Position numbers and translations under genes: made by a program
From: Escherichia phage AV126
Sequence record: OR352956.1
Direction: 5' to 3' (one strand)
Length of the DNA stretch: 64,000 nt
Part shown: one piece after another, positions 6,603 through 61,912 of the stretch
Numbering within the stretch: position 1 is the stretch's first letter
How the letters are laid out: each line of letters begins with the position of its first letter
The notes under the pieces: model-generated
The model's input: only the letters and a program-made list of their open reading frames with translations
Told to the model about the DNA's origin: nothing
Database searches by the model: none

Positions 6603-6632
6603 ACAATAAGAGTTTACAACGAGGAGATTGAT

Positions 6633-6977: not shown

Positions 6978-6986
6978 GGTGGGCTT

Positions 6987-8023: not shown

Positions 8024-8024
8024 C

Positions 8025-8053
8025 TTGCATAAACTTTGTTTTTGATGTATACT
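8025..8053 (+). promoter_or_regulatory. candidate sigma70-like promoter, TTGCAT-N17-TATACT
   Basis: -35 at 8025-8030, -10 at 8048-8053; -10 is close to the downstream SD, so the leader would be very short. Confidence 0.3.
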
Positions 8054-8068
8054 AAAAAGGAGATACAA

Positions 8069-8485: not shown

Positions 8486-9116
8486 TATTTACCAACAAAT
8501 AGAAGCATACGAAAATGCCATCTACTTAAATATAGGTGGCTTCCTTCAAGAATTAGTGGGGTTGCCAGTCTATGTTATGGATAAGCCATTCATTAAACCG
8601 GATACTCCTTACCTAGCACTACGTATTATCACTTCCAGCGATTCTGGAGGTTGGTCTTACCGAAGCTCTATTCAAAATGATATGTATTCCTACGAGATGG
8701 ATAATACCTACGAGATTGAACTTGTAGCCTATCGTGGAAGACCTACCACTTTGATGAGCTATGTTCTGGCTGCTCTCCGTGGTGCAGAGGAATTAAAATA
8801 CAAACATCTCTATTCTAAAGGTCTTGGTTTTTTAGGAGCCTCTAATATAGCTCAAGCCAATACGATTGTAGACGGAGATAAGACTGAATTAAGAGCGCGT
8901 ATGGTTATGACGTTCAACACTCGTATGAGTATTGAAGATATTGCTACTACACCAATAGAAGCAATCAACATGCACATCCGTTCATTCAGAGATAGTTACA
9001 ATGATCCTATCCCTTTAGATTTAATTCTAAACAGGGTTTATGCAATTACTTTGGTTCCAGGCGAATACTCGTCAGTTAATCAAAATGGATCATTATTTAA
9101 CAACCCTACCGAATAA
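8478..9116 (+). CDS. hypothetical tail completion-type protein
   Basis: In-frame TTG at 8478 sits 6 nt after AAGGAGG SD (ATG at 8457 has no SD); overlaps upstream gene end; 212 aa; precedes sheath gene. Confidence 0.45.
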   Translation: MANIYQQIEAYENAIYLNIGGFLQELVGLPVYVMDKPFIKPDTPYLALRIITSSDSGGWSYRSSIQNDMYSYEMDNTYEIELVAYRGRPTTLMSYVLAALRGAEELKYKHLYSKGLGFLGASNIAQANTIVDGDKTELRARMVMTFNTRMSIEDIATTPIEAINMHIRSFRDSYNDPIPLDLILNRVYAITLVPGEYSSVNQNGSLFNNPTE

Positions 9117-9150
9117 ACTCATTGGAATTAAGTTTCTAACAGGAGCATAA

Positions 9151-10524: not shown

Positions 10525-10527
10525 TAC

Positions 10528-10550
10528 GGCGGGGGTTAAGCCCCCGTTAT
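10528..10550 (+). terminator. hairpin after sheath gene (weak terminator/attenuator)
   Basis: CGGGGG-ttaag-CCCCCG stem-loop, poor U-tract (TTATCAAAATAAAG). Confidence 0.35.
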
Positions 10551-10570
10551 CAAAATAAAGAGGATCTATA

Positions 10571-11050
10571 ATGGATAAAATGCTTACTGGCGTAATGGCC
10601 TACGACCCATCTCAAGTTATCCTTTCATTAGGTGGTTGGGAACCGTGGGGTTTTGCGGCTGATACTAAAATCGTTATTGCTAAATCTAACGATATTATCA
10701 ACCCTTATTCAGGGACTGATGGGGACGTTTCATTAGCTTTGAGTCGTAACCGTTTGGGAACACTCACAATGTCTTTGCAACGCACATCTCCAGCTAACGA
10801 AGTACTTGCAACATATGCACAAACAATGTATTCTACTCGTCAAGTAGCATTCAGTGTTTACTTGGAAGACCCACGTGGCTATTACATTAGCACGATTGGA
10901 TGGATTCAAAGTCAGCCTGAAGATACTATTGGCGAAATGATTACAGAGAACCAATGGGTTATTGGTCTTAAAGATGCAAGCCTTCTGCGTAATGAAGTTG
11001 GTGTAGGTTTGAGCACCCTTAACTCAATCTCTGCTCTGACAATTCAATAA
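10571..11050 (+). CDS. tail tube protein
   Basis: 159 aa between sheath and chaperone/tape measure; GAGG SD; followed by strong terminator. Confidence 0.5.
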   Translation: MDKMLTGVMAYDPSQVILSLGGWEPWGFAADTKIVIAKSNDIINPYSGTDGDVSLALSRNRLGTLTMSLQRTSPANEVLATYAQTMYSTRQVAFSVYLEDPRGYYISTIGWIQSQPEDTIGEMITENQWVIGLKDASLLRNEVGVGLSTLNSISALTIQ

Positions 11051-11056
11051 TAAATA

Positions 11057-11078
11057 AAGGGCAGAAATGCCCTTTTTA
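11057..11078 (+). terminator. intrinsic terminator after tube gene
   Basis: AGGGCA-gaaa-TGCCCT hairpin followed by TTTTT. Confidence 0.7.
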
Positions 11079-11095
11079 TCATTAGAGAGGAAAAT

Positions 11096-11578
11096 ATGTC
11101 ACAAGAACAAGATAACACAATTCAAAAATATGCTCGACCAGAAGAAGTAGTTGAGATTCCGTTAGATGGAAACAGATCTGTTACTTTCCGTATTATGAAG
11201 TGGAGTCCATCTAAAGTGTTTGACAGGATTCCAGAATTGGGTAGTGTTCTGGTTGTTCCTATGACTATGTATAGCACAGCAACAATGTCCGCAGACGAAG
11301 ACCTTGAGTCACGTATTGCTATGGCACTGATCCAACTTTTTGCAGGTTTGGAAGAAAAGAATTTAACTGTCTTTTTGCGTAAAATTTTAGATGAGGTTTA
11401 TACTCAAGACGGTTATAACGTTGCAGAAAATTTTGATGAATTATTTATGGCTCACCCAGAACTAGTGTTAGATCTTACTGCTAAAGTTCTGGAGGTAAAC
11501 TACGGCCCTTTTTTCAAACGAGGTTTCGGAAAACTGTTCACACAGCTTCAGGCGATGACGAGTTTAGCAGCAAATTAA
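11096..11578 (+). CDS. tail assembly chaperone (short, zero-frame product)
   Basis: 160 aa between tube and tape measure; contains slippery heptamer T_TTT_TTC near its 3' end; -1 frame open across the overlap. Confidence 0.6.
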   Translation: MSQEQDNTIQKYARPEEVVEIPLDGNRSVTFRIMKWSPSKVFDRIPELGSVLVVPMTMYSTATMSADEDLESRIAMALIQLFAGLEEKNLTVFLRKILDEVYTQDGYNVAENFDELFMAHPELVLDLTAKVLEVNYGPFFKRGFGKLFTQLQAMTSLAAN

Positions 11579-11844
11579 CACCTGCGATTGAACATGCTAT
11601 CGACACAGCAACGAAAACCCTTACTTTGAAGTGGTATGAGGTTATTCTTTGCAAAGTCGTTAAAGATACCTCGGAAACACTGAAAACATTGGATAACTAC
11701 GGTGTAGATTATCTTTTAAAACTATATGAGTATTTAACATACGAAGAGTATGTTGAAGCCATGTATGTTAAAGACACTTCAATAAAGAGAAAACATCAAA
11801 ACCAGACAAATAAAATGTCAGATTTGTTTAAGAAACTTGTTTAA
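11096..11844 (+). CDS. tail assembly chaperone, predicted -1 frameshift fusion isoform
   Basis: Joining frame 2 (11096 to slip site) to frame 1 (to TAA at 11842-11844) gives about 249 aa; lambda G/GT-like arrangement upstream of tape measure. Confidence 0.5.
11509..11515 (+). other. -1 programmed ribosomal frameshift slippery site (T TTT TTC)
   Basis: XXXYYYZ heptamer in zero frame (codons TTT TTC); -1 frame is open and start-codon-free from 11485 through 11844. Confidence 0.55.
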
Positions 11845-11864
11845 TCCAACACGAGGAACATACT

Positions 11865-13853
11865 TTGTTAGAAATTAACGCCTCCAAAATTAGTAACGTG
11901 GTTACGTTTAAGGTGGACAAGAACAGTCTCAAGGAAGCAAAAGATGCCGTGTTGAGTGTTCAGAAGTTTGCAAATAAAATGCAACCCACTATGAACATGA
12001 CCAAGTTTAGACAACAAATGAAAGAGATTGAGCGTGAACTTAAGAAAGCTCAAACTCAAAGTCAAAAACCTATGCGAGCACCTACTCCCGCTGGAGCGGG
12101 TGCTCCTGTAGGCGGATCTGGCAGACCTAGAACTCCTAAAACCCCGCAAGGAAGAGAAGAAGAAAAAGCTCGTAAAGCTGCTGAACGCGAAGCTAAAGCA
12201 GCAGCACGTAGGGAAGACTTAGGTAATCTTCGTTTGCAGAACTTTAACTACAGAGCAAGAGCATTTAGTAAAGCCAGTCCTGGCGCTATGCAAGAAGCTA
12301 GAGACGTTATGGGTAAAGCTGTAGAGCAATACAAAAAGGGTGAAATAACTCTTCAACGTATGAACCAAGCTCTTGCTCACCAGTTGGATGCTTTACGCAG
12401 ATCTCATCGTGAAAAGAATGCTGAAATAGAAGACGAGGTTCGCGGTCGTCGCCGTATTCGTAGAGAGTTAGAAGCAGAAGCTAAAATGCGTATACGTATG
12501 CGAAATCGTGAACTTAGGGATATAGAACGAAATCGTAAGCGTGAATTAGCACAACAAAAACGTGATCGTGACCGTAGATATGGACAATTAAAAGAAGGTG
12601 CAGCAGGTCTTAATCCACGTATGATTGCATCCTCTTTGATAGGTGCTGGGCTGTTTGCAGGTGGTTCTGTAGTTGGTAACACGTTGATGAATACTAACGA
12701 AAGAATTAAACTTGTAAGCCGTGGTGCTGAAAACGTTCAGACAAACGCCAACGCTATTTTGGCAATGACAGCTTGGGGTGAACAGAACGGTGTAGACTCT
12801 GCAAATATTATTAAATCAATAGATAATATTAAAGACGTTCGTGAACGTCTTGGTAATACAGTTTTAGCTGCAAAGTGGAATGAGAAAGAAGGGAAGTGGA
12901 AAGGCGGTGATAATGGCATAACTGACATTATGAACTTGTTTGGATGGAATCCAGAACAGCTTAAACCTTTACAGAACGATCCTTTAGCTTTTATTCAGGC
13001 TACTGTTAATGAAGGTGAGCGTCGAGGTATGAACTCTGCTCAAATCGGGCGACTTCTTGAAAACCTTGGTGATGACCTTATGCACTACCAACGTATGTTT
13101 AGTAAAAACGGCGAAGGATATAATGAAGTATTGAAAATGCTTCAAAGAACAGGTGCAACATTAACTCAAGAACAAATAGATGCTTCTAAAGAGTTTACTC
13201 GTTTTGCTGCAACAGTTCAGCTTGTAGGTCAAGGTATGCAGAATCATTTCTTAGAGGGTTTTGTAAAAGCTTTACCTAAAGATGATTCTTGGTTGGATAA
13301 CGTTAAAGTGCTAGATCAGTTCGCCAAAGATTTAGGTGAAGAACTTGGTAAAACAACAGTTCAACTTGGTGGTTTTGCTAAAGAATTAGGAGATGGTTTC
13401 GGATCTTTTACCAATTGGCTTAAAGAAACATTCCCAGATACCTTCGGAGACAACACAGATCCTAATAAATCTTTGGCACAAAAAGCATACGAGGCAACGC
13501 AAAGTGGAGACAGCAATCCTGTAGCAGATTGGTTGTACAATTTAACAGGTATTGATACACAAGATATTGGTCGTATGTGGAGAGGAGAACAAACAAGGAC
13601 ACGTGCTTTTGGATTTGGTAATCCTCTTGAAGATTTACGTGAATCAGCCTATACACCTAACGTAAGTTTGGCTCGTAATCAACCTGTTGTTGAGAATACG
13701 GTAGCAATACCAAGTGATCTTATCAAAGTTACGATCAGCCCTTCTTCCGAGTTTGGAAATATTCTTGATGCAAGAATTCAAAATAGCGGAAATAGTATTT
13801 TCCAACGTTTGTCTCTTTCAACTCTAAGTGGACAATCTAACACTGGTGGTTAA
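11865..13853 (+). CDS. tail tape measure protein
   Basis: 662 aa; TTG start with GAGG SD; Arg/Lys/Glu coiled-coil N-half, Gly-rich hydrophobic segment (IASSLIGAGLFAGGSVVG); position after chaperone. Confidence 0.65.
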   Translation: MLEINASKISNVVTFKVDKNSLKEAKDAVLSVQKFANKMQPTMNMTKFRQQMKEIERELKKAQTQSQKPMRAPTPAGAGAPVGGSGRPRTPKTPQGREEEKARKAAEREAKAAARREDLGNLRLQNFNYRARAFSKASPGAMQEARDVMGKAVEQYKKGEITLQRMNQALAHQLDALRRSHREKNAEIEDEVRGRRRIRRELEAEAKMRIRMRNRELRDIERNRKRELAQQKRDRDRRYGQLKEGAAGLNPRMIASSLIGAGLFAGGSVVGNTLMNTNERIKLVSRGAENVQTNANAILAMTAWGEQNGVDSANIIKSIDNIKDVRERLGNTVLAAKWNEKEGKWKGGDNGITDIMNLFGWNPEQLKPLQNDPLAFIQATVNEGERRGMNSAQIGRLLENLGDDLMHYQRMFSKNGEGYNEVLKMLQRTGATLTQEQIDASKEFTRFAATVQLVGQGMQNHFLEGFVKALPKDDSWLDNVKVLDQFAKDLGEELGKTTVQLGGFAKELGDGFGSFTNWLKETFPDTFGDNTDPNKSLAQKAYEATQSGDSNPVADWLYNLTGIDTQDIGRMWRGEQTRTRAFGFGNPLEDLRESAYTPNVSLARNQPVVENTVAIPSDLIKVTISPSSEFGNILDARIQNSGNSIFQRLSLSTLSGQSNTGG

Positions 13854-13860
13854 TAAAATA

Positions 13861-13882
13861 CCTCGCTTCGGCGGGGTTTTTT
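13861..13882 (+). terminator. intrinsic terminator after tape measure gene (UUCG tetraloop)
   Basis: CCTCGC-TTCG-GCGGGG hairpin followed by TTTTTT. Confidence 0.75.
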
Positions 13883-13890
13883 CGTTTCCC

Positions 13891-13920
13891 TTGACACGAA
13901 GTTTCTATATGTGTTACAAT
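13891..13920 (+). promoter_or_regulatory. sigma70-like promoter, TTGACA-N18-TACAAT
   Basis: -35 at 13891-13896, -10 at 13915-13920, just after the terminator; followed by 5'-UTR hairpin GGAAGAT-cttgc-ATCTTCC (13931-13949). Confidence 0.5.
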
Positions 13921-13979
13921 AATCAATATGGGAAGATCTTGCATCTTCCTTTTGGCATTATCATTACTACGAGGTTATC

Positions 13980-14681
13980 ATGGCAGCAATGACTCCACAA
14001 CAGTCGGTGAGAGCCGTCTATAAGGCAGAACAGGAAATCAACTCTACCGAGAATAAAAATACCTCGGCATCTACTGTAAAGGGTGATAATGGTTTCTGCA
14101 TTTTAGCAAGTGTTTATAACAGTTCAAGTGATCAATACATTCAAAACTTTAAAGCAATTACTTTCGATTCAGTCCCTGAAATAGGTGTAACTCGTGAGGC
14201 AGATGTTACAAGTTTTCCAGTAGAATCAGGATCGGATGTAAGTGACCACGTTCAAATAAAAAACAACAGATTTAAACTTTCAGGTATAATTACCGAAACA
14301 CCAATTCGGCTTATGCGAGATCAATTATACAGTGCAGGTGTAAATGGAGCAAGGATTTCTCAAGCAATAGAATATCTAGACCAAATATTTGAGGCAAGAC
14401 AACCAATAGTTCTTTTGACAGAACACAGAACTTTTGAAAATGTTATCCTCAAAGGTTATTCGTATGATTATAAATCTGAATTTGCTATGCAATTTGATTT
14501 AGAGTTTGAACAAATCCGTCTCGTTTCTAAGGCCACTACTAACGCTATTGCTGTAAAAACAGCACCAAATAAGTCAACTGGTGGTGATGTGAAAGGTCAA
14601 GTTGCTTCGAATGGTCCTAAGTCAGATATTACAGTAAGAACTGCTGAAGCTACTAATACCCCAACAAACAACGGAGGTTAA
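13980..14681 (+). CDS. hypothetical tail/baseplate protein
   Basis: 233 aa, first gene after tape measure; GAGG SD. Confidence 0.5.
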   Translation: MAAMTPQQSVRAVYKAEQEINSTENKNTSASTVKGDNGFCILASVYNSSSDQYIQNFKAITFDSVPEIGVTREADVTSFPVESGSDVSDHVQIKNNRFKLSGIITETPIRLMRDQLYSAGVNGARISQAIEYLDQIFEARQPIVLLTEHRTFENVILKGYSYDYKSEFAMQFDLEFEQIRLVSKATTNAIAVKTAPNKSTGGDVKGQVASNGPKSDITVRTAEATNTPTNNGG

Positions 14682-46665: not shown

Positions 46666-46944
46666 TTAAAATGGTTCGTTAGTCTCCATCATATATTCTG
46701 CTTCTAGTTCTTCCATGTGCTTTCTAAATTGGAAAGCAATTTCTGCTACAGTTACATTTAAATCTTTTTCAAAAACTTCTGTAGATCCTTCATAAAAACG
46801 AATACCGTCAATTAAAAGCCCTCCGTGGTAATCCCAATCGCTTTCACGAGAAAGTGGATTAGGTTCTTCATAATAGTAATCCACCTCCACGACCAAGGCT
46901 TTCCCGTTACGAGCGGTGTATTCAAAATCAAAAGTGTTAATCAT
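46666..46944 (-). CDS. hypothetical acidic protein
   Basis: 92 aa, Glu/Asp/Tyr-rich. Confidence 0.45.
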   Translation of the reverse strand: MINTFDFEYTARNGKALVVEVDYYYEEPNPLSRESDWDYHGGLLIDGIRFYEGSTEVFEKDLNVTVAEIAFQFRKHMEELEAEYMMETNEPF

Positions 46945-47888
46945 TATAACTCCTCAAATAAAAGCCTACGACGCTCATTCAACACATCAATGTGATAATG
47001 AGTCCTGACATACTTAGCTAATGCTAATCCTTTCTCCATGCAAACATCGGGAGCACTTAATAAGTATTCCGTAATATCTTTCCACTCGGAAGGTGTTTCA
47101 GCAAAGAATAACAAATCTTTAAACTCTTGTGTATGATAATTCTCACGAGGAGAGCAGATTAAAGGTAAACCCTTAGCACCTGCCTCAAGAATTTTAAGAT
47201 TGCTTTTTGCATTATTAAACACGTTATCGATCAATGGTGCAAGACTGATTTGATGACCATCGTAAGATTCCATGTAGTTGGCATATGGTCTTACACCTTC
47301 ATAAACACAAGTTGGTGCTACATTTTCCCTGATTAAAGACCATTCACGACTACTTAAAACTTCAGAATCCCTACGAAAACCACATATTGTAAGATCTTTA
47401 CCAAAATCGGGCAAGATAGCCAAATCTTGTTTATGTGTTTCACTTCCAGCCCAGACTAATGGAGTTTTGGAGTAGCGATCACGGGTCAACACAAATTGAC
47501 CTTCATCGTAAGGAAGTCCATTAGGGATTATGTGCACATTATCATTGTATTGTGAAAGTTCAACTTGCAAGGCAGGTGTCGTAGTTGTAACAAGATCACT
47601 GTGCTCTAAAAACCATTTTAAATGTTCACGAATACCTGATTCAAAAATACCTTCTAACATGTGTCCTTTTGGAATAACTAAAGAGTCATCCAAATCCATA
47701 ACCATTTTAAAGCCTAGGTTTTTAAGGGCTAAAAAGCCCTCTTTACCTTTTGTTGGCACTCCGTTAAAAACGAAAACGTTGTGTTTAGGTTGTGAAGAGA
47801 ACTGCCTTGAGTAAGGCAGCACTACCCTATGGAAATCGCAGACACTATAATTGATTCCGTTACGATTGTCAAGAATTATTTGTCCCAT
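46944..47888 (-). CDS. glycosyltransferase, GT-B fold (paralog 1)
   Basis: 314 aa; C-terminal SNLKILEAGAKGLPLICS resembles GT1/GT4 motif; paralog of 47896-48843. Confidence 0.55.
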   Translation of the reverse strand: MGQIILDNRNGINYSVCDFHRVVLPYSRQFSSQPKHNVFVFNGVPTKGKEGFLALKNLGFKMVMDLDDSLVIPKGHMLEGIFESGIREHLKWFLEHSDLVTTTTPALQVELSQYNDNVHIIPNGLPYDEGQFVLTRDRYSKTPLVWAGSETHKQDLAILPDFGKDLTICGFRRDSEVLSSREWSLIRENVAPTCVYEGVRPYANYMESYDGHQISLAPLIDNVFNNAKSNLKILEAGAKGLPLICSPRENYHTQEFKDLLFFAETPSEWKDITEYLLSAPDVCMEKGLALAKYVRTHYHIDVLNERRRLLFEEL

Positions 47889-47895
47889 ACTTCAC

Positions 47896-48843
47896 CTACA
47901 AACTTTCAATAACCTGGCGTCGCAACTCGTTTGCATCTGCCAGATTATAATGTGTTCGAACATGTTCAGCCAAGAACAAGCCACGATCTTCCCGATAATT
48001 TGGATTGCGAAGAAGCTTAACAATTTCGTAATGCCATTCTGCTTTATTCTCTGCGTAAGCAACAGCGCGAGCATCTACAGGGTTAAAATAAGGTAATACC
48101 TTAGAACAAACAATTGGAATACCTTTTGCTCCAGCTTCCAGGATTTTGAGATTGCTTTTACAATTATTAAAATCATTATCTACCAAAGGAGCTATAGCAA
48201 TAGCATGACTTTCGTAAACACTCATGTAATTATCTAAATCTTTTACAGCGGCTTTATATTTGGCATTTGGTAAATTTCTGCGAATCTTAATCCACTCTTG
48301 TCCCGTGATGCTTTGTGATGCTTCATATCCCGCAATAGTAAGAAGTTCATCATCGAAAGTATTAGAGACTAGTCGTAAGTCTGGTTCGTGACTAGCACCG
48401 CCAGCCCATACAACAGGGGTACCGGATGAACGATCATTTGACAAAGTGAATTGTCCGCTATCAAAAGGAAGTGCATTTCGGATCACAACAACATTCCTAT
48501 TTAAGTGACGGATCTTATATGCCAAATATTCCGTAGTCACAATAACCACATCAGCAAGCTTAACCATAGCTACAATAGCATGAGTGTTTGACTCGTATAG
48601 ACTTGCTAAATAATGTTCTGGATTAAGTTGGTAAAAATCATCTAAGTCTACAACAACCTTAACACCTTGACGTTTCAAAGATAAAACGTATTCTGCACCT
48701 TTAGAGTGGATACGGTTAAACACAACAACATCTTTCTTAGGTTGAATATTATTGTTGTTAAATGGTATAACAATACGATGATAGTCACAACCGCTGTGAG
48801 GTTTTGCATCAATTTTTAGTTTAGACCATTTTTTATTTGACAT
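47896..48843 (-). CDS. glycosyltransferase, GT-B fold (paralog 2)
   Basis: 315 aa; same N-terminal (CDYHRIVIPF) and C-terminal (SNLKILEAGAKGIPIVCS) motifs as neighbour. Confidence 0.55.
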   Translation of the reverse strand: MSNKKWSKLKIDAKPHSGCDYHRIVIPFNNNNIQPKKDVVVFNRIHSKGAEYVLSLKRQGVKVVVDLDDFYQLNPEHYLASLYESNTHAIVAMVKLADVVIVTTEYLAYKIRHLNRNVVVIRNALPFDSGQFTLSNDRSSGTPVVWAGGASHEPDLRLVSNTFDDELLTIAGYEASQSITGQEWIKIRRNLPNAKYKAAVKDLDNYMSVYESHAIAIAPLVDNDFNNCKSNLKILEAGAKGIPIVCSKVLPYFNPVDARAVAYAENKAEWHYEIVKLLRNPNYREDRGLFLAEHVRTHYNLADANELRRQVIESL

Positions 48844-49516
48844 GTGCTAGTGCCTCCTCATAGGAAATTCGGATTTTCCCATTTTTAATATCCTCTAAAG
48901 ATGCTTTATATTCTTCCCAGTTAATCCCAATAGCAGCCTCTTTCTCTTCTTTTGTCAGGTTAGCAAAAGGCATAGGATTGTTTCCAAAAACATCGTCTGG
49001 GTGGATATAAGCCATGATACGAAGTGGACAAGGTGTTGCCTGAATACCATGATTCAAACCAGCAGCTTGCAAACGGTGTCCCCATTCAGCATCTTCAAAA
49101 CCATAACCGTGAGTGTAAGGACGGAAATAACCCATCTTCTCAACAACGGAACGAGAATACATTGCAAATTGACACATTGCAAGTTCCCAGAGAATAACTT
49201 CTCCTTTGCTTCCAACAACTTTATCTTTGAAATACTCCGGCATACCAAAGAAATCCCATCCTCCAGAGACAGCTTGATCTACAAAGTATGTTTCCCATCC
49301 CTCCATGACTGGGTAGCAATCATCGTCAAAAATAAACCAATAATCATAACCTTCTTCATAAAACTGGTGCATAAGTTCATTCCTGGCATAAGCTACACCT
49401 TTACGATCTGGATCGTTGAATACTCGAAAATCTGCACGTGGATCTGTTACAAGGTAGTCTTTAAGTGGACGGACACCTACAGTGATAACACCCACTCCGA
49501 TTTTAATATTTTCCAT
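48833..49516 (-). CDS. glycosyltransferase, GT-A-like (DxD)
   Basis: 227 aa; YARNELM and WFIFDDDCYP acidic DxD-type motif. Confidence 0.5.
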   Translation of the reverse strand: MENIKIGVGVITVGVRPLKDYLVTDPRADFRVFNDPDRKGVAYARNELMHQFYEEGYDYWFIFDDDCYPVMEGWETYFVDQAVSGGWDFFGMPEYFKDKVVGSKGEVILWELAMCQFAMYSRSVVEKMGYFRPYTHGYGFEDAEWGHRLQAAGLNHGIQATPCPLRIMAYIHPDDVFGNNPMPFANLTKEEKEAAIGINWEEYKASLEDIKNGKIRISYEEALAHVK

Positions 49517-49524
49517 TTTCTCTC

Positions 49525-50088
49525 CTAAATAGTTTTACTGTGATCGTGACAGTGTAATAAATGATGTATAGACCGTTGAGGATTTGTTTGACCTAATCTG
49601 TAAATGTGAAACAGATACATTCCCCGCATCAATCCTAACCTCTTTCCTTTTTCATGTAAAGTGCGAGAGAAAATTAAGTCGAATTGGATAGATTTTTCTT
49701 CGAAAGGAATTTCGTTCCACAACGATTTTCTAAAAAGCAAAAAGAAACCTGCCAGAGGTGTTCCGAAAGGAACTTCTTCAACACTCACTTTATGATATTC
49801 TCTTGCAATCTTAGCATATTCTATATGGTTTAGAATATCTGGATCATCGTTAATTTGGTTAGAGAAAAGCTGATAACCACTACCTAACCTGTTACAAGTT
49901 GCACCTATTACATCAAAAGGTGGGTTTGAAATAACAAGCTCTTCAAGCATAGATGGTTGATCAGGCAGGAGGAACATTGTATCGGTATCTCTTAAGCACA
50001 CCCAACTATCATCTGGAAGAACGGCAATAGCTTCATTGATAGCCTTGCCGATATTTCCTGTCAGATAGGGAGTAATATAATAAATCAT
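49525..50088 (-). CDS. putative GT-A-like glycosyltransferase
   Basis: 187 aa; CLRDTDTMF DxD-like motif; tandem with other glycosyltransferases. Confidence 0.35.
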   Translation of the reverse strand: MIYYITPYLTGNIGKAINEAIAVLPDDSWVCLRDTDTMFLLPDQPSMLEELVISNPPFDVIGATCNRLGSGYQLFSNQINDDPDILNHIEYAKIAREYHKVSVEEVPFGTPLAGFFLLFRKSLWNEIPFEEKSIQFDLIFSRTLHEKGKRLGLMRGMYLFHIYRLGQTNPQRSIHHLLHCHDHSKTI

Positions 50089-51410: not shown

Positions 51411-52013
51411 TTATGGACATTCATACCATTCTTTTTTACCACCGAAGGCCATCACCACATCGCAAATATCCAGACCAGCTTTACCTACACCATATGCTTT
51501 CAGTTTCCATTCCCCATCTTCACGAACCAAGGAAGCCACGTGGCAGATTGTGTTGCCAGCTACTTCAGGAGCTAGGAAGTCAAAATCCAGAATTTCCACA
51601 TTGCGCTCGGAGTCGAAGATTTTAAGCATACCTTCAGAAGCATGACCAAAACGTTTCAGACCTGTATCATCATCAATGGTCAGAACAAAGGCAATCTCTT
51701 GTGCATCAGGAGAGATTTTAGCCAGAGTAATATCAATCTGCTCCATGCTGCCAGTCCCATCACGAACATCGTCACCAGCGAAGGTAGAACGTTCAGGATC
51801 AAACTTGTTAGCATAGCAAACCAGATGACGTGCAGACAGCATTTCAGGATTGCCAGCGGCATTGTGACGACAAACCAGTGCACTTACATCCAGATCCAGT
51901 TTAGAATCAGATTTCCAAGAGAATTCCAGGCGCAGTTCTTTCAGAGCCGGAGCAACTTTCTTCAGGGAAATTTTTTCGCTAGAGCCTTTTTTCAGGGAAA
52001 TTTTATCATTCAT
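51411..52013 (-). CDS. terD: TerD-domain protein
   Basis: 200 aa; N-terminal duplicated motif MNDKISLKKGSSEKISLKK parallels the start of bacterial TerD; GDDVRDGTGS resembles TerD Ca-binding motif. Confidence 0.75.
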   Translation of the reverse strand: MNDKISLKKGSSEKISLKKVAPALKELRLEFSWKSDSKLDLDVSALVCRHNAAGNPEMLSARHLVCYANKFDPERSTFAGDDVRDGTGSMEQIDITLAKISPDAQEIAFVLTIDDDTGLKRFGHASEGMLKIFDSERNVEILDFDFLAPEVAGNTICHVASLVREDGEWKLKAYGVGKAGLDICDVVMAFGGKKEWYECP

Positions 52014-52298: not shown

Positions 52299-52527
52299 TT
52301 CTTCCTCCTAATGTTATCTCCGGTTTGTATATACGAAGAATTATAGCATTTTCATTTTCTTTGTCAACCCATTCTTCATAATCGGGCCATACATGAATCT
52401 CTACTCTACTTACAATATTTTCCATCCGCACAGTCCCAATGAAATATTCTTTGAGACTGCGCATAATGAAAGCTTCTCTCTCGCGCCAATAATTTTCTAC
52501 GACTTGAGAGGCAAGCTCGTCGATCAT
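52279..52527 (-). CDS. hypothetical protein
   Basis: 82 aa; start overlaps vWA gene stop. Confidence 0.4.
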   Translation of the reverse strand: MIDELASQVVENYWREREAFIMRSLKEYFIGTVRMENIVSRVEIHVWPDYEEWVDKENENAIILRIYKPEITLGGRSVKLRN

Positions 52528-53318
52528 TTTTTAGCACCTACCTTAACAACCCACTCTCCGAACTCTTCAGATAAGAGTTTGTCATAAAGCTCTGAATCTG
52601 TCAAGTCTAAATCTTTAATGCCAATAAAACCAACATTGTCATAAGCATTTGCCAGTTCTTTCAGGAAGCTGAACTTCTCATTACCAACGCCAACCATGAA
52701 CCAATAGATAGGCTTATTCTTATTCTCTTCAATAAGACGACGAACAGCACTAGGATCACCATTCTCACCATCTGTCTGGAAGAATACAACACCAGGAGTA
52801 ACGTCAGCACCTGGTTCAGATACAGCTACAACTTTTTCACGCTCTACAGATACTGTTTCAGTTTTACCCAGCAGACGATTAAAGAAGCCTTTCTTTGGAG
52901 CCTCCTCTTGTACCACTTGTTTAGTGGTAACATATTTGGTAACAGTGCCAAAATACTCATCGTAGATATCTGCCATTACAGGGGCGTAATTTGTTCCACC
53001 TCCGATACGAACATTACGCATACATTTACCAACATAGTCATCGTAAACGTCTGCTGTTGCTGGAGTAAGCTCTTGAGAACTCGTATTGAAGGCCCACATG
53101 TCAATTTGTTCATTATCGTCGAACAGCATACCAAAAGGAAGCAGTTTGCCTACAAAATCACTCACTACCCCACGAGTATATAGACCATGCATACTACCAG
53201 AAATATCTAGAGCACATGCTACACGAAGAACAATCTTACCTTCATTCAGGTTCTTATTCTTTTTCAGAGAGAAAGCAAGGTTTTCTTGACGTTTTTTCAG
53301 GCTGATTTTCTCGGACAT
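52524..53318 (-). CDS. von Willebrand factor A domain protein (TerY-like)
   Basis: 264 aa; MIDAS motif DISGSM; N-terminus MSEKISLKK shares the EKISLKK motif with the TerD-like protein. Confidence 0.7.
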   Translation of the reverse strand: MSEKISLKKRQENLAFSLKKNKNLNEGKIVLRVACALDISGSMHGLYTRGVVSDFVGKLLPFGMLFDDNEQIDMWAFNTSSQELTPATADVYDDYVGKCMRNVRIGGGTNYAPVMADIYDEYFGTVTKYVTTKQVVQEEAPKKGFFNRLLGKTETVSVEREKVVAVSEPGADVTPGVVFFQTDGENGDPSAVRRLIEENKNKPIYWFMVGVGNEKFSFLKELANAYDNVGFIGIKDLDLTDSELYDKLLSEEFGEWVVKVGAKK

Positions 53319-54517: not shown

Positions 54518-54720
54518 TCTTCTTCCTCATTAAATTCCACATCAGAAATAACTTTAAATCTACCAAAGTTACGACAACCTTCATAGATATATCCATCACG
54601 ACAAGCTGCAAAAATATCTGGAGTTTGTAGCTGGGTCATTGGGGCAAAGCGTTTCTCTTCGTCATAACGAACACCTATTTCTCCAGCTTGTTCGTCAAGC
54701 ATGTATACACGGATTCTCAT
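54514..54720 (-). CDS. hypothetical protein
   Basis: 68 aa; ends EEEE; coupled to neighbours. Confidence 0.4.
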   Translation of the reverse strand: MRIRVYMLDEQAGEIGVRYDEEKRFAPMTQLQTPDIFAACRDGYIYEGCRNFGRFKVISDVEFNEEEE

Positions 54721-55829
54721 TTACCCAACCCCTTCTTAACAGCGTCAACCATCCCATCTTCGAGAGATTGAACTTCATTGATGTAATCAACACGGGCAGC
54801 ACGGGCTTCCGTATTGATGCGGTTAGTTTCTTCCAACATTTTAACCAAGTTTTCCTGATCGTGACGCAGAGTTTCAATATCCAACACTTGACGGTTAGCC
54901 AGTGCTGCTGCTTCGATCTGATTCTGTGTGGCAAGATCGCTACCCAGTTTAATTGCCAGGTTAAATTCATCAAGAACGTTATTCTGTGTCTCTGCGGCTT
55001 TCATTTGACGTAAGCTTTCAATATACATTGAGAAGTTAGCAGAGTAAGCAGGAATAACATTATTTACTATGTTACGCGCAGATCGCATTAAGCTTGCAGA
55101 AACTTTTTGCATACCTTGCACACGTGGTCCCATTTGGACACACAGTAGGCGCAATGCTTTTAAATCCGCAATACGAATCTCCAGAAGATCCAAGGTATCT
55201 CGGATCGCTTGTCGCTGTTCTACCGCATCTTCTGGAAGAGCAGCCAAAGCTTGTTCTTCTTTTTCATAGGTCGCTGTTAGAAGCTGCATATCTCGGTTCA
55301 AACTTGCAGCATATTGTCCAATAGCTTGATGTAGCTTTTCAAGGTATACCAAAGAATCTTCTTCTTTGCGAATATCCATTTGAAGGTTCTTTACCAACTC
55401 TTCAATACGGTTATTAACATTATCAAACTCCCCAAACAGGTCTTCTTTCATACCCATAACTTTTTTAATGAGTTTAGTAATACCCTTGCTTTGTTTAATA
55501 GAGTTTGGATCAAGTTGTTTTGCCTGTTTAATCAAAGCTGTGAGTCGTTCACTCATCTGATCGCCTTGATTACTACGTTGATGTTTTAATACCTCAGCAT
55601 TCAAGGAACGCAAGGTTGTTCCTGCCTCTGCCCCAATCTCTTCGATCTCTTGTCGGGTCATAGAAGGCAAAACTGGAACTTCTTGCGGTGCCGCTGGTGC
55701 ATAAACAGGACTGGCATCTAACACGCTTGGAGCGAATACAGATTTACTTGCATCTGTTGTTGCAGCGAATACACTCATTTCAGACTTCTTCTGACCACCA
55801 GTAGCTGCTTTTAAAAATGGACTTGTCAT
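54717..55829 (-). CDS. TelA-like helical protein
   Basis: 370 aa, Ala/Pro-rich N-terminus then long helical/coiled-coil body; assignment by size, composition and Ter context only. Confidence 0.35.
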   Translation of the reverse strand: MTSPFLKAATGGQKKSEMSVFAATTDASKSVFAPSVLDASPVYAPAAPQEVPVLPSMTRQEIEEIGAEAGTTLRSLNAEVLKHQRSNQGDQMSERLTALIKQAKQLDPNSIKQSKGITKLIKKVMGMKEDLFGEFDNVNNRIEELVKNLQMDIRKEEDSLVYLEKLHQAIGQYAASLNRDMQLLTATYEKEEQALAALPEDAVEQRQAIRDTLDLLEIRIADLKALRLLCVQMGPRVQGMQKVSASLMRSARNIVNNVIPAYSANFSMYIESLRQMKAAETQNNVLDEFNLAIKLGSDLATQNQIEAAALANRQVLDIETLRHDQENLVKMLEETNRINTEARAARVDYINEVQSLEDGMVDAVKKGLGK

Positions 55830-56416
55830 TCTTCATTCTCCTCTTCTGCATCTCTTATATATGGTGAAACACCGTACTCTTTAGCTACTTTAACCCAATC
55901 ATCCCATTTATATAACCATAATTTTCCTTCAGTTCCTTCTTTATCTGATTTCAACCACATGTTAGGTTGCTTGCCTGGGTACATGCGATTAGGTTTACGA
56001 TTATAACCTCTAACACATCTTGTCGCAAACCTATCTACCAGAACAAGAACATATTTATATTCGTGGTTCAACGGCTCTTTGGAAGTGGCTTTAGGATTAG
56101 CCCCTAATTCTGCTGCCAGTTTTTGCCAATGAGCACCGTGCCTACTAAACTTACCCATACAACCATCAATAGCATGAGCAATTTCGTGCTTCATTGTATC
56201 CACGATCATATCTCTTGTGGAGTTCTTATGCAAGTGCCAATTTACAACAACAATTTTATCTCGGTAGTTGCACCAACCGAAAGAGTTATTCACTTTGTTT
56301 CTAACACAAGCTTTATATCCTGCTTCACGTAACATGTTGTAGTAAACAGGAAAATCTTCTTTTATTTCCTGCATCACTTCCCACCACAAGAGTTGCAAGT
56401 CTCTCTCGGTATGCAT
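55826..56416 (-). CDS. putative zinc metallopeptidase (SprT-like HExxH)
   Basis: 196 aa; MKHEIAHAIDGCMGKFSRHGAHW has HExxH plus downstream His. Confidence 0.4.
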   Translation of the reverse strand: MHTERDLQLLWWEVMQEIKEDFPVYYNMLREAGYKACVRNKVNNSFGWCNYRDKIVVVNWHLHKNSTRDMIVDTMKHEIAHAIDGCMGKFSRHGAHWQKLAAELGANPKATSKEPLNHEYKYVLVLVDRFATRCVRGYNRKPNRMYPGKQPNMWLKSDKEGTEGKLWLYKWDDWVKVAKEYGVSPYIRDAEEENEE

Positions 56417-57999: not shown

Positions 58000-58041
58000 A
58001 AGTCTCTCCTATAAAATAGCCTCCCGAAGGAGGCTCATCTA

Positions 58042-59016
58042 TTAAACAGCAGCTTCTTCTTTTTCAGGGAAGATAAAGCTTGCAATAACACCAAGAGCTA
58101 ATGTGCCTAGAACAATCATCAGACTTACGTTAGGGGAAATATCATGCGGGAGGAATGACCATTTGGCATGAAGTGTTTCACCGAACGGGTGATACATAAG
58201 TTTAGCACCAACAAACACCAGAACCACAGCAACAGCTTTCTCTAAGTGAACCAGATATTTCACAGCTACACTTAACACAAAGAAAAGTGCACGTAAACCA
58301 AGAACAGCCATCAGCATTGCAGAATAAACTAGCAGAGGTTCTTGTGTCACCCCGATCACAGCCGGAACTGAATCAAAAGAGAAGACAATATCTGTAAGCT
58401 CAATAACAAACACACAAAGAAGAGCAGGAGTTGCATATTTAATACCATTCTTAATGGTAATGAACTTTTCACCATCCAGTGCATTGTGCACAGGCAGAAC
58501 TTTACCTACTAAACGAACAGCCCAATGCTTAGAGTAATCAATATCCTCTTCTTCGTCACCACCTTTGATGATAGCCACGGCAGACCAGGCTACAATCAAA
58601 CCGAACAACACTTGGACCGACCAATGAAGGTTAAACAAAGCGGTGCCTGCTGCAACAAAAATACCTCGGAAGACAATGGCTCCTGCAATCCCCCAAAGTA
58701 AAATCTTATGTTGGAGATGTGTGCTCTTAATTCCAAAGCTTGCAAAAATTGCCATGAACACCATCAGGTTATCTACAGAAAGACTCTTTTCCAACACATA
58801 ACCACTTAGGAAAAGCGCGGCAAACTCTTTACCATGTTCTACCCAAATGAATGCGTAATATCCTAAAGCTAAAGCAATCCAAAAAACAGACCAAAGCAAA
58901 GCAGATTTAATTCCAATTTCTTTATTCTCTTTATGACCAAAGAAATCGATACCAATAGACAATGCCAAAATACCAACTAAAACAACTACATCAATAATTG
59001 GGAAACCGAGTTGCAT
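58042..59016 (-). CDS. terC: TerC-family integral membrane protein
   Basis: 324 aa, multiple TM segments; EKSLSVDNLMVF and FSFDSVPAVIGVT match the two TerC signature repeats. Confidence 0.75.
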   Translation of the reverse strand: MQLGFPIIDVVVLVGILALSIGIDFFGHKENKEIGIKSALLWSVFWIALALGYYAFIWVEHGKEFAALFLSGYVLEKSLSVDNLMVFMAIFASFGIKSTHLQHKILLWGIAGAIVFRGIFVAAGTALFNLHWSVQVLFGLIVAWSAVAIIKGGDEEEDIDYSKHWAVRLVGKVLPVHNALDGEKFITIKNGIKYATPALLCVFVIELTDIVFSFDSVPAVIGVTQEPLLVYSAMLMAVLGLRALFFVLSVAVKYLVHLEKAVAVVLVFVGAKLMYHPFGETLHAKWSFLPHDISPNVSLMIVLGTLALGVIASFIFPEKEEAAV

Positions 59017-59095: not shown

Positions 59096-59317
59096 TTATT
59101 TTGTTGAATGAGAGGAAAAGATTCCTCGTAATACAGCCAGAATAAACGAAACACAAACCACGGTCCAGAAGGTTACTGGGACAGTGATATCTGCATGACC
59201 CATAACTTCAGCAACATAGTTGTAAGCCAGCAACAGTAACCAAGCTGGAATCAAACTAAGCATAAAAGCAATAACAAAAAAGCTTACCACTGCAACAATA
59301 CCTGCAAAAACACCCAT
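59096..59317 (-). CDS. small membrane protein
   Basis: 73 aa, two hydrophobic helices. Confidence 0.45.
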   Translation of the reverse strand: MGVFAGIVAVVSFFVIAFMLSLIPAWLLLLAYNYVAEVMGHADITVPVTFWTVVCVSFILAVLRGIFSSHSTK

Positions 59318-59329: not shown

Positions 59330-59815
59330 TTAAAGTTTATAAATAGTCACATCGTGACCAGCTTTTACTAAAGTTTCTTTGATCATGACTTCAATGATAG
59401 CCCAATTACCTCCAGCATGACCTGCACCTATCATAGGTAGACCAATCTTATGTGCTGGCTGATCTCCTTTATCGTAATTGTGTAAGTCCATTGCCATAGC
59501 TGCAAGAGCATCATACAGCGCATCATAATCTAGTTGACGACCTTTACTATTGTATCCATAACGATACTGTCCATAAAGGTTGTATACCATAGGGTTAGGA
59601 TAATCTTCTGGTTCCCCTAAACTAAAAGAACCAAGCTTTTTCTGGTTTCCTGCTCCTGTAGCTAAATCTGCTTCGTATGCATATGGAAACGCATATTTTA
59701 TTTGTGGGGCAATGCCTGCCCCCATATTACACATACAGTTGCAACAATGAGCAATAACAGTTACTTCACCTGCTTTAGCGGCATCAATAAGATTACCTGT
59801 TTTCATTTTAAGCAT
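59330..59815 (-). CDS. macro-like domain protein (ADP-ribose binding/processing fold)
   Basis: ATG at 59815 after AGGAG SD; VTVIAHCCNCMCNMGAGIAPQI and KIGLPMIGAGHAGGNW align with macro motifs but with substitutions; 161 aa. Confidence 0.45.
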   Translation of the reverse strand: MLKMKTGNLIDAAKAGEVTVIAHCCNCMCNMGAGIAPQIKYAFPYAYEADLATGAGNQKKLGSFSLGEPEDYPNPMVYNLYGQYRYGYNSKGRQLDYDALYDALAAMAMDLHNYDKGDQPAHKIGLPMIGAGHAGGNWAIIEVMIKETLVKAGHDVTIYKL

Positions 59816-59828
59816 TTTTAGCTCCTTA

Positions 59829-60656
59829 TTACAGAATGTGTTGTTTTGTGTAACGATCCAAGAATTCAAAGTTTTCAGCATACTTTGCAATCCGATTGTA
59901 GCCTTCAGCTAAACAGCCGAAGAAAAGTTGTTCCACATAGTAGTGTGGCAATTGGCTAAGAATGATTTTGAAGTCTTCATGATTTTGGCCCATAAGATAC
60001 TTAATAGGACGAACAAGGCACTGTGCATCACGTTCTTCATTAATCATTTTAACAAACGCTTCTGGTGTATTAATGTAGTTAAAATTCAGTTTAGCTTCAG
60101 TATCTGCTTGATTACCTTCGTATTTTGCAAAATACAAGAAGTAAACATCATTTTTAACTTGATTTTCATCAAGAATCTCAATCAGTTTGTCTTCATGCGT
60201 TCCGGTGATATTTACATCATCAATGAACACCAACTTCTTATCACCCCAGAATTCTTTGTTGCAGTAGAATGTATCCCCATCAATAAGTTTCTTACGACTA
60301 GCTTTATCCAAGAAGCCATAATCGTTAATATAACTAACTTTACGATGAATAATATCCAGTTCTGCTGAACGACCTTGATCATATTGTGCTTGCAACATAT
60401 TAAAGTAATTAATAAAATGATCTGTCATCATTGTTGCAGCATTATGCACATGGTTATAAGGAGAAGGAATGATAACAAATTGTTCCCCAATATGTTTCAT
60501 TGCCACTTGAGCAAAAAACTGAAGTGCCAATTCTTTACCCATACGACGCGCAGCTTGGTTACTGCCAAATTTCAATTTTGAATAATCTTTGATATCAAAA
60601 GTAGCAGTTTCCAGGTCATCAAATTTATTTGCAAAAATTTGAGTTTGATTACGCAT
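59829..60656 (-). CDS. phosphoribosyltransferase-like protein (type I PRTase fold)
   Basis: 275 aa; KLVFIDDVNITGTH resembles PRPP-binding motif; does not resemble Prs. Confidence 0.45.
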   Translation of the reverse strand: MRNQTQIFANKFDDLETATFDIKDYSKLKFGSNQAARRMGKELALQFFAQVAMKHIGEQFVIIPSPYNHVHNAATMMTDHFINYFNMLQAQYDQGRSAELDIIHRKVSYINDYGFLDKASRKKLIDGDTFYCNKEFWGDKKLVFIDDVNITGTHEDKLIEILDENQVKNDVYFLYFAKYEGNQADTEAKLNFNYINTPEAFVKMINEERDAQCLVRPIKYLMGQNHEDFKIILSQLPHYYVEQLFFGCLAEGYNRIAKYAENFEFLDRYTKQHIL

Positions 60657-61326
60657 TTACAATTTCTCCTCTTTTAAGTTTCTCTAGTAAGTCGTTAGGG
60701 TTCTTAATATGACAGAAGTTAATCCCTATGTCAACACATTTTCCATCAAATTCTTCGCTGTCCCCAACATGTAAAATCTCTTCAGCCTTCAAAGGAATGC
60801 TTGAATATGTGGCGGTCCTAACAAAGAATCTAGGATCTGGTTTACACAACAGATGTTCGTCTGAAAAATGCATAAATTCAAAACAATTCCAACTGTCAAA
60901 CATACAAGCACGACGCAAAATATCCCCAGATATAAAATTAGTATTGCTTTTAATACTAAGATCATATTTACCAGACAAGTATAGCAAACAAACTGGCAAA
61001 TCTAAAGCAATATGTGGAGGAAATTTAAGAAACCATTGCTCACACTCAAAACGCATTTGTGCAGATTCTACAGGGGTTAAACCTATCTTTCTTCCCAACA
61101 TATTCCATGCATATGCTACACCTTCTGCACACCCATTTAGTGCAGCATTATCCATAATTTCTTTGGCATCTTTATAGGCTTCTTTTGCGGCACGTTCAGA
61201 CATTCTACCATATGTGGCAATAGTGTGCGTACGTGCATCTGCATAGTTTTGATTGGCAGAAATAAGAGTATTCCATACATCAAAAGAGATATGTTTTATT
61301 GTCATATTAGGCCCACCATGCATCAA
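60649..61326 (-). CDS. HAD-superfamily hydrolase-like protein (atypical motif I)
   Basis: 225 aa; motif I FDVWNTL (DxW, not DxD), motif III-like LLCKPDPRFF, motif IV-like HVGDSEEFD. Confidence 0.45.
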   Translation of the reverse strand: MMHGGPNMTIKHISFDVWNTLISANQNYADARTHTIATYGRMSERAAKEAYKDAKEIMDNAALNGCAEGVAYAWNMLGRKIGLTPVESAQMRFECEQWFLKFPPHIALDLPVCLLYLSGKYDLSIKSNTNFISGDILRRACMFDSWNCFEFMHFSDEHLLCKPDPRFFVRTATYSSIPLKAEEILHVGDSEEFDGKCVDIGINFCHIKNPNDLLEKLKRGEIVNA

Positions 61327-61912
61327 GATTTAAGTTACTATCTACCACAACTTGTTCTATGTGGTAGCCTTTTATCTGTATCCCACTGTTTAAGAGCATA
61401 TCATATGCTTCATTGAAACGCAACTTATCTTCTGCGGAATATAAGCGAGCATTATAAAATCGGTAATCAATTTCTTCAACATTAGAAGAAATACGGAAGA
61501 AGTTTGTTTCTACTTCAGGATCACTTGCTGAAGTCTTAATGTGAACTTCTCCATAATTTTCTTTACTTAGATCCATGAAAAGAACACAGGCAACATGTTT
61601 AAACATTCGTTCCAGTTTGTAACGAACAACATTGAAACCTGCATTCTCAAGTTTCTCTACACATTGCAACATTAACGTAGTGTCGAGATCGCTTTGATAC
61701 TTTGTTAACATACGATCACGTTGAGACTTTGTATCCCGATGTAAATCAATTGTTGTGCATTTGGCACCAATGATCTTAGCTGCTTTCATCAACTCTTCAG
61801 AACTAACGTTAGATAAAGTAAGATGAAAATGGGCTTTCCACACTTTTTTAGCAGGAATGCCAAAAGATTTATCCCCGCTATTTGGCATGTTAACTACTAC
61901 ACTATGTTGCAT
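61307..61912 (-). CDS. hypothetical protein
   Basis: 201 aa; single HLTL motif only. Confidence 0.45.
   Translation of the reverse strand: MQHSVVVNMPNSGDKSFGIPAKKVWKAHFHLTLSNVSSEELMKAAKIIGAKCTTIDLHRDTKSQRDRMLTKYQSDLDTTLMLQCVEKLENAGFNVVRYKLERMFKHVACVLFMDLSKENYGEVHIKTSASDPEVETNFFRISSNVEEIDYRFYNARLYSAEDKLRFNEAYDMLLNSGIQIKGYHIEQVVVDSNLNLDAWWA

Follow-up and report, generated by a model that had tools for sequence, protein, structure and literature searches.

A HAD/PRTase_3 gene pair and a probable AdfM-type macrodomain beside the Ter genes of Escherichia phage AV126

The locus

The subject of this report is a run of three adjacent minus-strand genes, encoding a HAD-type hydrolase, a phosphoribosyltransferase (PRTase) of the PRTase_3 family, and a macrodomain protein, in Escherichia phage AV126 (sequence record OR352956.1). 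The genes lie within a stretch of 64,000 nucleotides, which is referred to here as the window. An earlier, sequence-only reading had suggested PRTase, HAD, and macro resemblances for the three, and each resemblance is statistically supported in profile searches. The interpretation that we favor, and regard as modestly probable, is that the block consists of two independent units set side by side in one operon, namely a HAD/PRTase_3 cassette and an AdfM-type macrodomain. The features of the locus are listed below.

60649..61305, minus strand: HAD subfamily IA hydrolase, 218 aa (NCBIfam and PDB profile matches)
59829..60656, minus strand: PRTase_3, a ComF-like type I phosphoribosyltransferase, 275 aa, whose phosphoribosyl pyrophosphate (PRPP) loop, LVFIDDVNITGTH, is intact
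59330..59815, minus strand: macrodomain protein, 161 aa (PDB, NCBIfam, and PADLOC matches; BLASTP match to T4 Tk.4)
58042..59016, minus strand: TerC-family integral membrane protein, the last gene of the transcription unit (Pfam TerC, 3e-40)
54717..55829, minus strand: TelA-family Ter component (Pfam TelA, 1.7e-33)
52524..53318, minus strand: vWA-TerF-like Ter component (Pfam PF10138, 2.8e-37)
51411..52013, minus strand: TerD-domain Ter component (Pfam TerD, 3.2e-28)
61307..61912, minus strand: 201-aa protein of an uncharacterized family with HxHxT and ExHxK motifs, a neighbor outside the conserved pair
59096..59317, minus strand: 73-aa predicted membrane protein between the macrodomain gene and TerC (phrog_16065, 6e-43)
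58018..58035, minus strand: intrinsic-terminator-like hairpin, AGCCTCC-TTCG-GGAGGCT plus a T-rich tail, right after TerC

The window comes from a phAPEC8-like E. coli phage belonging to Phapecoctavirus, subfamily Stephanstirmvirinae. Between positions 59000 and 62000 it shares 99% identity with Escherichia phage vB_EcoM_Schickermooser; for ESCO5, ESCO13, nieznany, and other members of Phapecoctavirus the figure is 95%. The order of genes on the minus strand is NrdD, NrdG, a 63-aa gene, the 201-aa gene, HAD, PRTase, macrodomain, the 73-aa gene, and TerC, with NrdD and NrdG, the anaerobic ribonucleotide reductase genes, at the head of a unit that ends in TerC. Further downstream are genes for a SprT-like protein, TelA, the vWA-TerF-like protein, TerD, an endolysin, and four glycosyltransferases. 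The Ter genes that had been said to lie next door are indeed present, each with the Pfam match given above.

Of the hairpins found on the minus strand between NrdD and TerC, the one following TerC is the strongest, with five of its seven pairs being G-C, and a terminator is also marked at this site in the Schickermooser annotation. Two weaker matches, within the NrdG and 201-aa genes, contain only three G-C pairs. The HAD, PRTase, and macrodomain genes are probably co-transcribed. The stop codon of the 201-aa gene ends one base ahead of the HAD ATG at 61305, the end of the HAD gene overlaps the start of the PRTase gene by 8 nt (ATGCGTAA), and the macrodomain ATG at 59815 lies five bases past an AAGGAG site and 13 nt past the PRTase stop. 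This spacing points to translational coupling. The sequence-only reading had adopted the longest open reading frames, which open at TTG codons; the true starts are most likely 59815 for the macrodomain and 61305 for the HAD protein. An Rfam scan of the window returned no match, including no manganese riboswitch ahead of TerC.

The HAD/PRTase_3 pair and its genomic neighborhoods

The PRTase matches Pfam PF15610 (PRTase_3) with an E-value of 1.5e-41 and a score of 143 bits (cut-off, 28.7), the alignment extending over positions 9-264 of the 264-position model. The motif originally singled out as PRPP-binding-like, VFIDDVNITGTH, corresponds to residues 143-154. As can be seen from the alignments, the loop fits the classical pattern of four hydrophobic, two acidic, and two more hydrophobic residues, followed by any residue and T/S-G-x-T/S, here LVFI-DD-VN-I-TG-T. 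Asp 146, Asp 147, Thr 151, Gly 152, and Thr 153 are invariant across 28 homologues with identities down to 27%. A Rossmann-like core is present, and the fold is that of the ComF/type I PRTases; no solved structure was matched by sequence for the members of PF15610. From these comparisons the protein is a type I phosphoribosyltransferase of the PRTase_3 family, and catalysis of PRPP transfer is predicted for it.

The HAD protein matches NCBIfam TIGR02252 (REG-2-like HAD-IA) at 1.3e-8, together with the CTE7, dehalogenase type II, and YjjG models. When a profile of its family was compared with the PDB, the matches were 2om6 (PH0253) at 6.8e-23, human HDHD3 at 5e-13, and 7shg at 2.1e-7. Motif I reads FDVWNTL, such that the nucleophile, Asp 9, is retained and the aspartate normally found two residues later (Asp+2) is replaced by Trp 11. 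Asp 9, Thr 13, Ser 120 of motif II, Lys 155 of motif III, and both Asp 182 and Asp 187 of motif IV are invariant in 19 PRTase-linked HAD proteins. In nearly all of the HAD proteins from 36 distinct PRTase_3 loci, motif I has the form S-h-D-x-W-x-T; tryptophan occupies the position in at least 90% of the PRTase_3-linked proteins, and tyrosine is found in one member. The DxD of phosphatases and mutases is thus missing throughout the family. An identical FDVWNTL occurs in Pyrococcus PH0253. The HAD assignment of the sequence-only reading therefore stands on both profiles and invariant motifs, whereas its description of the DxW motif as unusual does not, the motif being the family norm. In the phosphatases and mutases of the HAD superfamily the general acid/base is the aspartate at nucleophile+2, for which dehalogenases, phosphonatase, and P-type ATPases have another residue. 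The protein is a predicted HAD-fold hydrolase and is probably catalytic; given the family-wide loss of Asp+2, simple nucleotide phosphatase activity is not to be assumed, and ordinary activity of that kind is not assured.

For the survey of genomic context, PRTase_3 loci were gathered from phage records, IMG/VR viral contigs, one genome per GTDB species, plasmids, and homologue-bearing assemblies, and their open reading frames were searched with the window proteins. The HAD gene lies directly upstream of the PRTase_3 gene, on the same strand, in all 42 of the 42 loci, which come from phages, Rhizobiaceae, and Bacteroidota. Neighboring families were then defined by all-against-all clustering over 25 non-redundant loci, 24 or 25 of which, depending on the method used, contain the HAD gene. 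The families that recur beside the pair are TerC, TelA, and TerD (six loci each), vWA (five), and a DUF475-like TerC relative (three), and there are no others. Neither ATP-grasp nor TIM-barrel lyase genes recur among the neighbors of the pair in these 25 loci, and none was found among the scanned genes of the window.

A TerD, TelA, or vWA gene abuts the pair in the independent large phages L017, L021, L022, L023, and L025, and three TerD genes abut it on a Hymenobacter plasmid. In the window the distances downstream of the pair are 0.8 kb for TerC, 4 kb for TelA, 6.5 kb for vWA, and 7.8 kb for TerD. Overall, Ter genes recur near the pair in at least eight independent lineages. Phage records with a window-type TerD number 145 and those with the PRTase 156, and the taxon breakdowns of the two sets nearly match. 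What these searches establish for the pair is its homology, the intactness of its catalytic motifs, its strict pairing, and its recurrent linkage to Ter genes.

Some neighborhoods are of a different character. On the Rhizobiaceae plasmids L003 (6500-11400) and L004 (7100-10800) the pair stands alone between insertion-sequence fragments, the flanking pieces being transposase-like open reading frames, and in L003 it adjoins a UbiA/SDR/GMC-oxidoreductase cluster. Here the pair apparently moves as a cassette of two genes. In the XaC1-like jumbo phages L007-L010 (∼5100-14500) it is located among RNA-repair-type genes with no Ter genes near, the neighbors encoding an RNA ligase, a DUF2828/DUF7788 protein, a CCA-adding enzyme, a ribosome hibernation factor, a NUDIX protein, and a protein with a weak 2H-SAK match. 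A link to RNA repair as a general property of the pair was considered and rejected, such partners being limited to the XaC1-like lineage. Enterobacterial ter plasmids were likewise rejected as the source of the pair: a tblastn search of plasmids with the PRTase yielded 17 matching records, none of them enterobacterial, with matches only to Rhizobiaceae and one Hymenobacter plasmid.

The macrodomain and other neighboring genes

The score of the macrodomain protein against Pfam Macro is 20.7 bits (4e-4), slightly under the cut-off of 22, although a precomputed PF01661 match is recorded for some homologues in the protein database. Searches against the PDB returned 5e3b (SCO6735) at 3.3e-12, 2fg1 (BT1257) at 4e-8, DarG (5m31) at 1.8e-4, and TARG1 at 2e-3, and the PADLOC DarG model was matched at 1.2e-9. 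Identification as DarG itself was rejected. The match to NCBIfam DarG NF048014 (4e-8) reaches 32.9 bits, far under the cut-off of 250, and covers only profile positions 5-147 of 338, and the DarT-binding C-terminal domain is missing. Asn 22 of the phage protein aligns with Asn 22 of DarG, Gln 79 occupies the position of DarG Lys 80 and TARG1 Lys 84, and TARG1 Asp 125 is replaced by an alanine. Both Asn 22 and Gln 79 are invariant in 16 homologues, T4 Tk.4 among them. The macro fold proposed earlier was accordingly retained, and what had been described as substituted signature residues proved to be the Asn/Gln pattern by which the SCO6735/ALC1-like subclass is defined. As judged from these alignments, the protein is an orphan macrodomain of that subclass.

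In BLASTP comparisons the macrodomain is 39% identical to T4 Tk.4 (E 2e-21), and a tk.4 domain is already recorded for it in the Schickermooser annotation. According to a 2025 preprint, tk.4 is the only gene that T4 requires on a DarTG2 host; it was named adfM, and its clean knockout sensitizes T4 (10.1101/2025.11.20.689424). The AdfM protein of a chimallivirus strips DarT2-made ADP-ribose from DNA, as a 2026 paper showed (PMC13309987). In addition, SCO6735 acts on thymidine-linked ADP-ribose, which it cleaves from DNA, and can rescue cells from DarT; its activity requires both Gln 85 and Asn 27 (PMC9411070), to which Gln 79 and Asn 22 of the phage protein correspond. The NADAR protein AdfN, which acts against DarTG1, is a further established case of a phage "orphan antitoxin" glycohydrolase. 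On the basis of the Tk.4 homology, the tk.4 knockout, the chimallivirus AdfM, and the SCO6735 precedent, the macrodomain is a probable AdfM-type anti-DarT2 DNA ADP-ribosylglycohydrolase that acts independently of its neighbors. The earlier suggestion that it might remove a host ADP-ribose-based defense modification fits well with this assignment and with the predicted SCO6735-type active site.

The distribution of the macrodomain differs from that of the pair. Its family is present in 2243 phage records versus 156 for the PRTase, a ∼14-fold difference, and the carriers include T4-like, Vequintavirinae, Felixounavirus-like, and Pseudomonas phages. Only in three Stephanstirmvirinae representatives of the 25 non-redundant loci does it adjoin the pair; in two other phages a homologue lies 7-8 kb from it, and in L013 and L014 the PRTase and macrodomain genes are separated by insertions of other genes. 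In Escherichia phage JohannJBalmer (L047, 9833-10567; Justusliebigvirus) the orthologous protein is annotated as 244 aa with an N-terminal extension of ∼85 aa, its gene overlapping the end of the PRTase gene, and a 386-aa hypothetical protein is encoded in place of the 201-aa gene.

The 201-aa protein shows no match to a Pfam or NCBIfam family. Its relatives, 246 cluster representatives in all, have the HxHxT and ExHxK motifs in common, and fusions are found in which the domain follows a NUDIX or SpoT-type HD domain. The AlphaFold2 model, with a mean confidence score (pLDDT) of 81, resembles a tandem of ferredoxin-like halves, and no PDB entry matches it over its full length; folds like the predicted one are found in giant viruses, in Acinetobacter phage ME3, and in phages of Rheinheimera, Aeromonas, and Sinorhizobium. 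The entire family matches two PADLOC models labeled AbiEi. That label was not confirmed, there being no Pfam AbiEi match, no winged helix in the model, and no AbiEii neighbor seen in contexts that either were phage-like or could not be judged because of the shortness of the contigs. Among the PRTase_3 loci the gene is limited to those that are Phapecoctavirus-like, and on another phage contig with a homologue no PRTase_3 gene lies within 7 kb. The 201-aa protein is not a conserved partner of the HAD/PRTase pair. On the metagenomic phage contig L044 (7001-8021) a homologue overlaps the start of a gene for a homologue of Acb1, the anti-CBASS phosphodiesterase (CBASS, cyclic-oligonucleotide-based antiphage signaling system), and a NADAR gene is located 4 kb downstream of these two. 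There are hints that the family sits among counter-defense genes, and the protein may be another counter-defense or nucleotide-processing protein.

The 73-aa gene is confined, in the neighborhood survey, to Stephanstirmvirinae loci. Within the Ter block, right upstream of TelA, is a gene for a protein with a SprT-like metalloprotease domain (55826-56416, minus strand; Pfam, 4e-9), the stop codon of which overlaps the TelA start, and which is kept in Phapecoctavirus-like loci. Four consecutive glycosyltransferase-like genes (46944-50088, minus strand) follow directly after a DnaB-like helicase gene. One of their products, 227 aa in length, gives a weak, sub-threshold match to the TET-associated glycosyltransferases (TAGT, E 1e-3), and this raises the question as to whether these genes might modify DNA instead of surface glycans. 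Finally, records labeled as Campylobacter, Acinetobacter, Pseudomonas, and "Dompiswa" phages encode proteins with 65-99% identity to the window PRTase. The last three are at 78-99%, and Campylobacter phage C3, at 65%, is at the Justusliebigvirus level. Such records probably reflect mislabeled hosts or contaminating coliphages.

Interpretation and comparison with known systems

Resistance to phages, colicins, and tellurite has been connected with the Ter system, which is predicted to employ a nucleoside-like metabolite. In the model of two independent units, the PRTase would transfer ribose-5-phosphate from PRPP to a nucleophile, most likely a small heterocycle. The HAD protein would then remove the 5'-phosphate to yield a riboside or, alternatively, remove pyrophosphate and thereby pull the reaction forward. 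The product might act with the membrane-associated TerD, vWA-TerF, TelA, and TerC proteins of the phage; in the role proposed earlier for a Ter-linked product, superinfecting phages would be excluded or the envelope of the infected cell remodeled. The macrodomain, by analogy with its characterized homologues, would hydrolyze the ADP-ribose from thymidine in DarT2-modified phage DNA and so restore replication, for which it would need neither the PRTase nor the HAD protein.

Several observations weigh against this interpretation. Approximately half of the PRTase_3 lineages have no Ter gene within 6-10 kb (Rhizobiaceae, the XaC1-like jumbo phages, L018-20, L024, L026, and L027), and thus the pair can work without adjacent Ter genes. 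The absence of the Asp+2 general acid/base throughout the HAD family speaks against an efficient ordinary phosphomonoesterase, and literature searches revealed no biochemical study of either PRTase_3 (PF15610) or this HAD subfamily. The macrodomain lacks both of the DNA-contacting lysines of SCO6735, Lys 34 and Lys 89, as does T4 Tk.4. Finally, the macrodomain is kept beside the pair across Phapecoctavirus and Justusliebigvirus, where the PRTases are 65% and the macrodomains 43% identical. Because this adjacency has been maintained and co-transcription is probable, the macrodomain and the pair may have a lineage-specific functional link.

With respect to the pair, the scheme ranked first is one in which a small acceptor is phosphoribosylated and then processed by the HAD protein, the product being tied to the Ter proteins, and its rivals are a manipulation of nucleotide pools like that of ShosT and the ribosylation of a macromolecule. 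In the former, a HAD pyrophosphatase would pull a reversible PRTase, such that PRPP is drained or purine and pyrimidine metabolism is diverted for the purpose of host takeover or harm to competitors. ShosT, which disturbs purine metabolism, consists of an N-terminal HAD-like pyrophosphatase that drives the fused C-terminal PRTase, the order being that of the gene pair (PMC11961720). The loss of Asp+2, which makes a classical sugar-phosphate phosphatase less likely, and the anaerobic ribonucleotide reductase genes in the operon are also in keeping with this scheme, which we nevertheless regard as unlikely. In the latter, the PRTase would add ribose-5-phosphate to a glycan, lipid carrier, protein, or nucleic acid, and the HAD protein would strip the 5-phosphate. 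Exactly such a two-step logic is employed by the dual-domain ribofuranosyltransferases, in which the gPRT domain transfers ribose-5-phosphate from PRPP and the HAD-family PRP domain removes the 5-phosphate (PMC11231755). The match of the HAD family profile to the PRP domain of 7shg and the presence of the four glycosyltransferase genes ∼10 kb away in the window also favor such a route, yet it is held to be less probable than the ShosT-like scheme and, indeed, quite improbable. Least credible of all, and in our estimate very unlikely, is that PRTase_3 is a non-catalytic ComF-like protein with a nucleic-acid-binding or regulatory function and that the HAD protein is its binding partner rather than an enzyme. 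This is opposed by the PRPP acidic pair and TGT loop, invariant down to 27% identity, and by the invariant nucleophile, motif III lysine, and two motif IV aspartates of the HAD protein, as expected of active enzymes.

The suggestion in the sequence-only reading that the three genes constitute one pathway fares poorly. In such a scheme the PRTase, HAD protein, and macrodomain would act in sequence on a single ADP-ribose- or PRPP-derived molecule, either making a signaling nucleotide or destroying an ADP-ribose-based signal of the host. The genes are adjacent, co-oriented, and probably co-transcribed, and their adjacency has survived a protein divergence of 35-57% between Phapecoctavirus and Justusliebigvirus. 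Against this stand the 22 of 25 non-redundant loci in which no macrodomain is near the pair, the separation of 7-8 kb in two others having one, the inserted genes in L013 and L014, and the far greater number of phage records with the macrodomain family than with the PRTase. Furthermore, Tk.4 affords T4 protection from DarTG2, and the annotation around tk.4 (NC_000866, 56000-62000) shows neither a PRTase nor a HAD gene. A single pathway is hence considered improbable, ranking just behind the ShosT-like scheme. A more speculative proposal is that the pair produces a new PRPP-derived riboside or nucleotide-like messenger, which is sensed by TerD, vWA, or TelA and switches a membrane response in the infected cell; in the Stephanstirmvirinae, the macrodomain and the 201-aa protein would tune or degrade this messenger or a related ADP-ribose-type molecule. 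We consider it doubtful, more so than the single pathway and less so than macromolecule ribosylation. If it were true, the block would represent a phage-encoded small-molecule signaling circuit and not a set of unrelated genes.

Returning to the model of two independent units, both are of kinds already described, the pair by prediction only and the macrodomain by recent experiments on its homologues. The locus presents a predicted biosynthetic core reduced to two apparently coupled genes in tractable, easily grown E. coli phages. Its carriers include members of the BASEL collection such as JohannJBalmer, and these provide a convenient system both for finding the product and for addressing the question of superinfection exclusion. 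Setting the macrodomain apart from the pair leads to the prediction that such phages depend upon it for growth on DarTG2 hosts. If that is the case, the AdfM counter-defense extends to another large phage subfamily.

In 2012 Anantharaman, Iyer, and Aravind reportedly proposed that PRTases and HAD phosphoesterases encoded with Ter genes provide a route to a nucleoside-like metabolite, and the full module is said to have included an accessory ATP-grasp amidoligase and a TIM-barrel C-C lyase. PF15610 is reportedly the Pfam family built from that analysis. The 2012 proposal is relayed in passages of PMC7824862, PMC8115787, and PMC4633105. Iyer et al. 2021 described phage versions of the predicted Ter "signal biosynthesis" module (PMC7824862). 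The pairing of a PRTase with a HAD protein noted at the outset is the one predicted for Ter-linked operons, and its association with Ter genes in phages had already been published as a prediction. The likeness extends to the PF15610 PRTase, the adjacent HAD phosphoesterase, the links to TerD, vWA-TerF, TelA, and TerC, and the occurrence in large phages. Unlike the full module, which as a whole is itself a prediction, the phage version is minimal and contains only the HAD protein and the PRTase. New here are a biosynthetic core of two genes only, a HAD/PRTase pairing that is absolute in the loci examined, a HAD family without Asp+2, and the carriage of the pair without adjacent Ter genes by about half of the lineages.

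The arrangement of the pair resembles that of ShosT in that a HAD-type hydrolase precedes a PRPP-binding PRTase in a setting of phage-host conflict. With the gPRT and PRP ribofuranosyltransferases (7shg) the common features are a PRPP donor in the known system, the subsequent removal of the 5-phosphate by a HAD-family domain, and HAD proteins that are detectably related; the gPRT transferase domain, unlike the PRTase of the pair, is of a different fold, uses a glycan acceptor, and is encoded in O-antigen/capsule loci. The macrodomain, in turn, is like T4 Tk.4 and the chimallivirus AdfM in being a standalone phage macrodomain of ∼155-160 aa without a DarT-binding C-terminal domain, and it shares with Tk.4 the same conserved asparagine and glutamine positions. 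The chimallivirus AdfM was modeled with a DarG-like lysine (Lys 78), whereas the phage macrodomain and Tk.4 have a glutamine, as does SCO6735. The best solved relatives, SCO6735 (5e3b) and Bacteroides BT1257 (2fg1), have the N...GQ...GxG(x3)GxW active-site pattern in common with the phage protein, which, relative to SCO6735, has a cysteine in place of Val 25.

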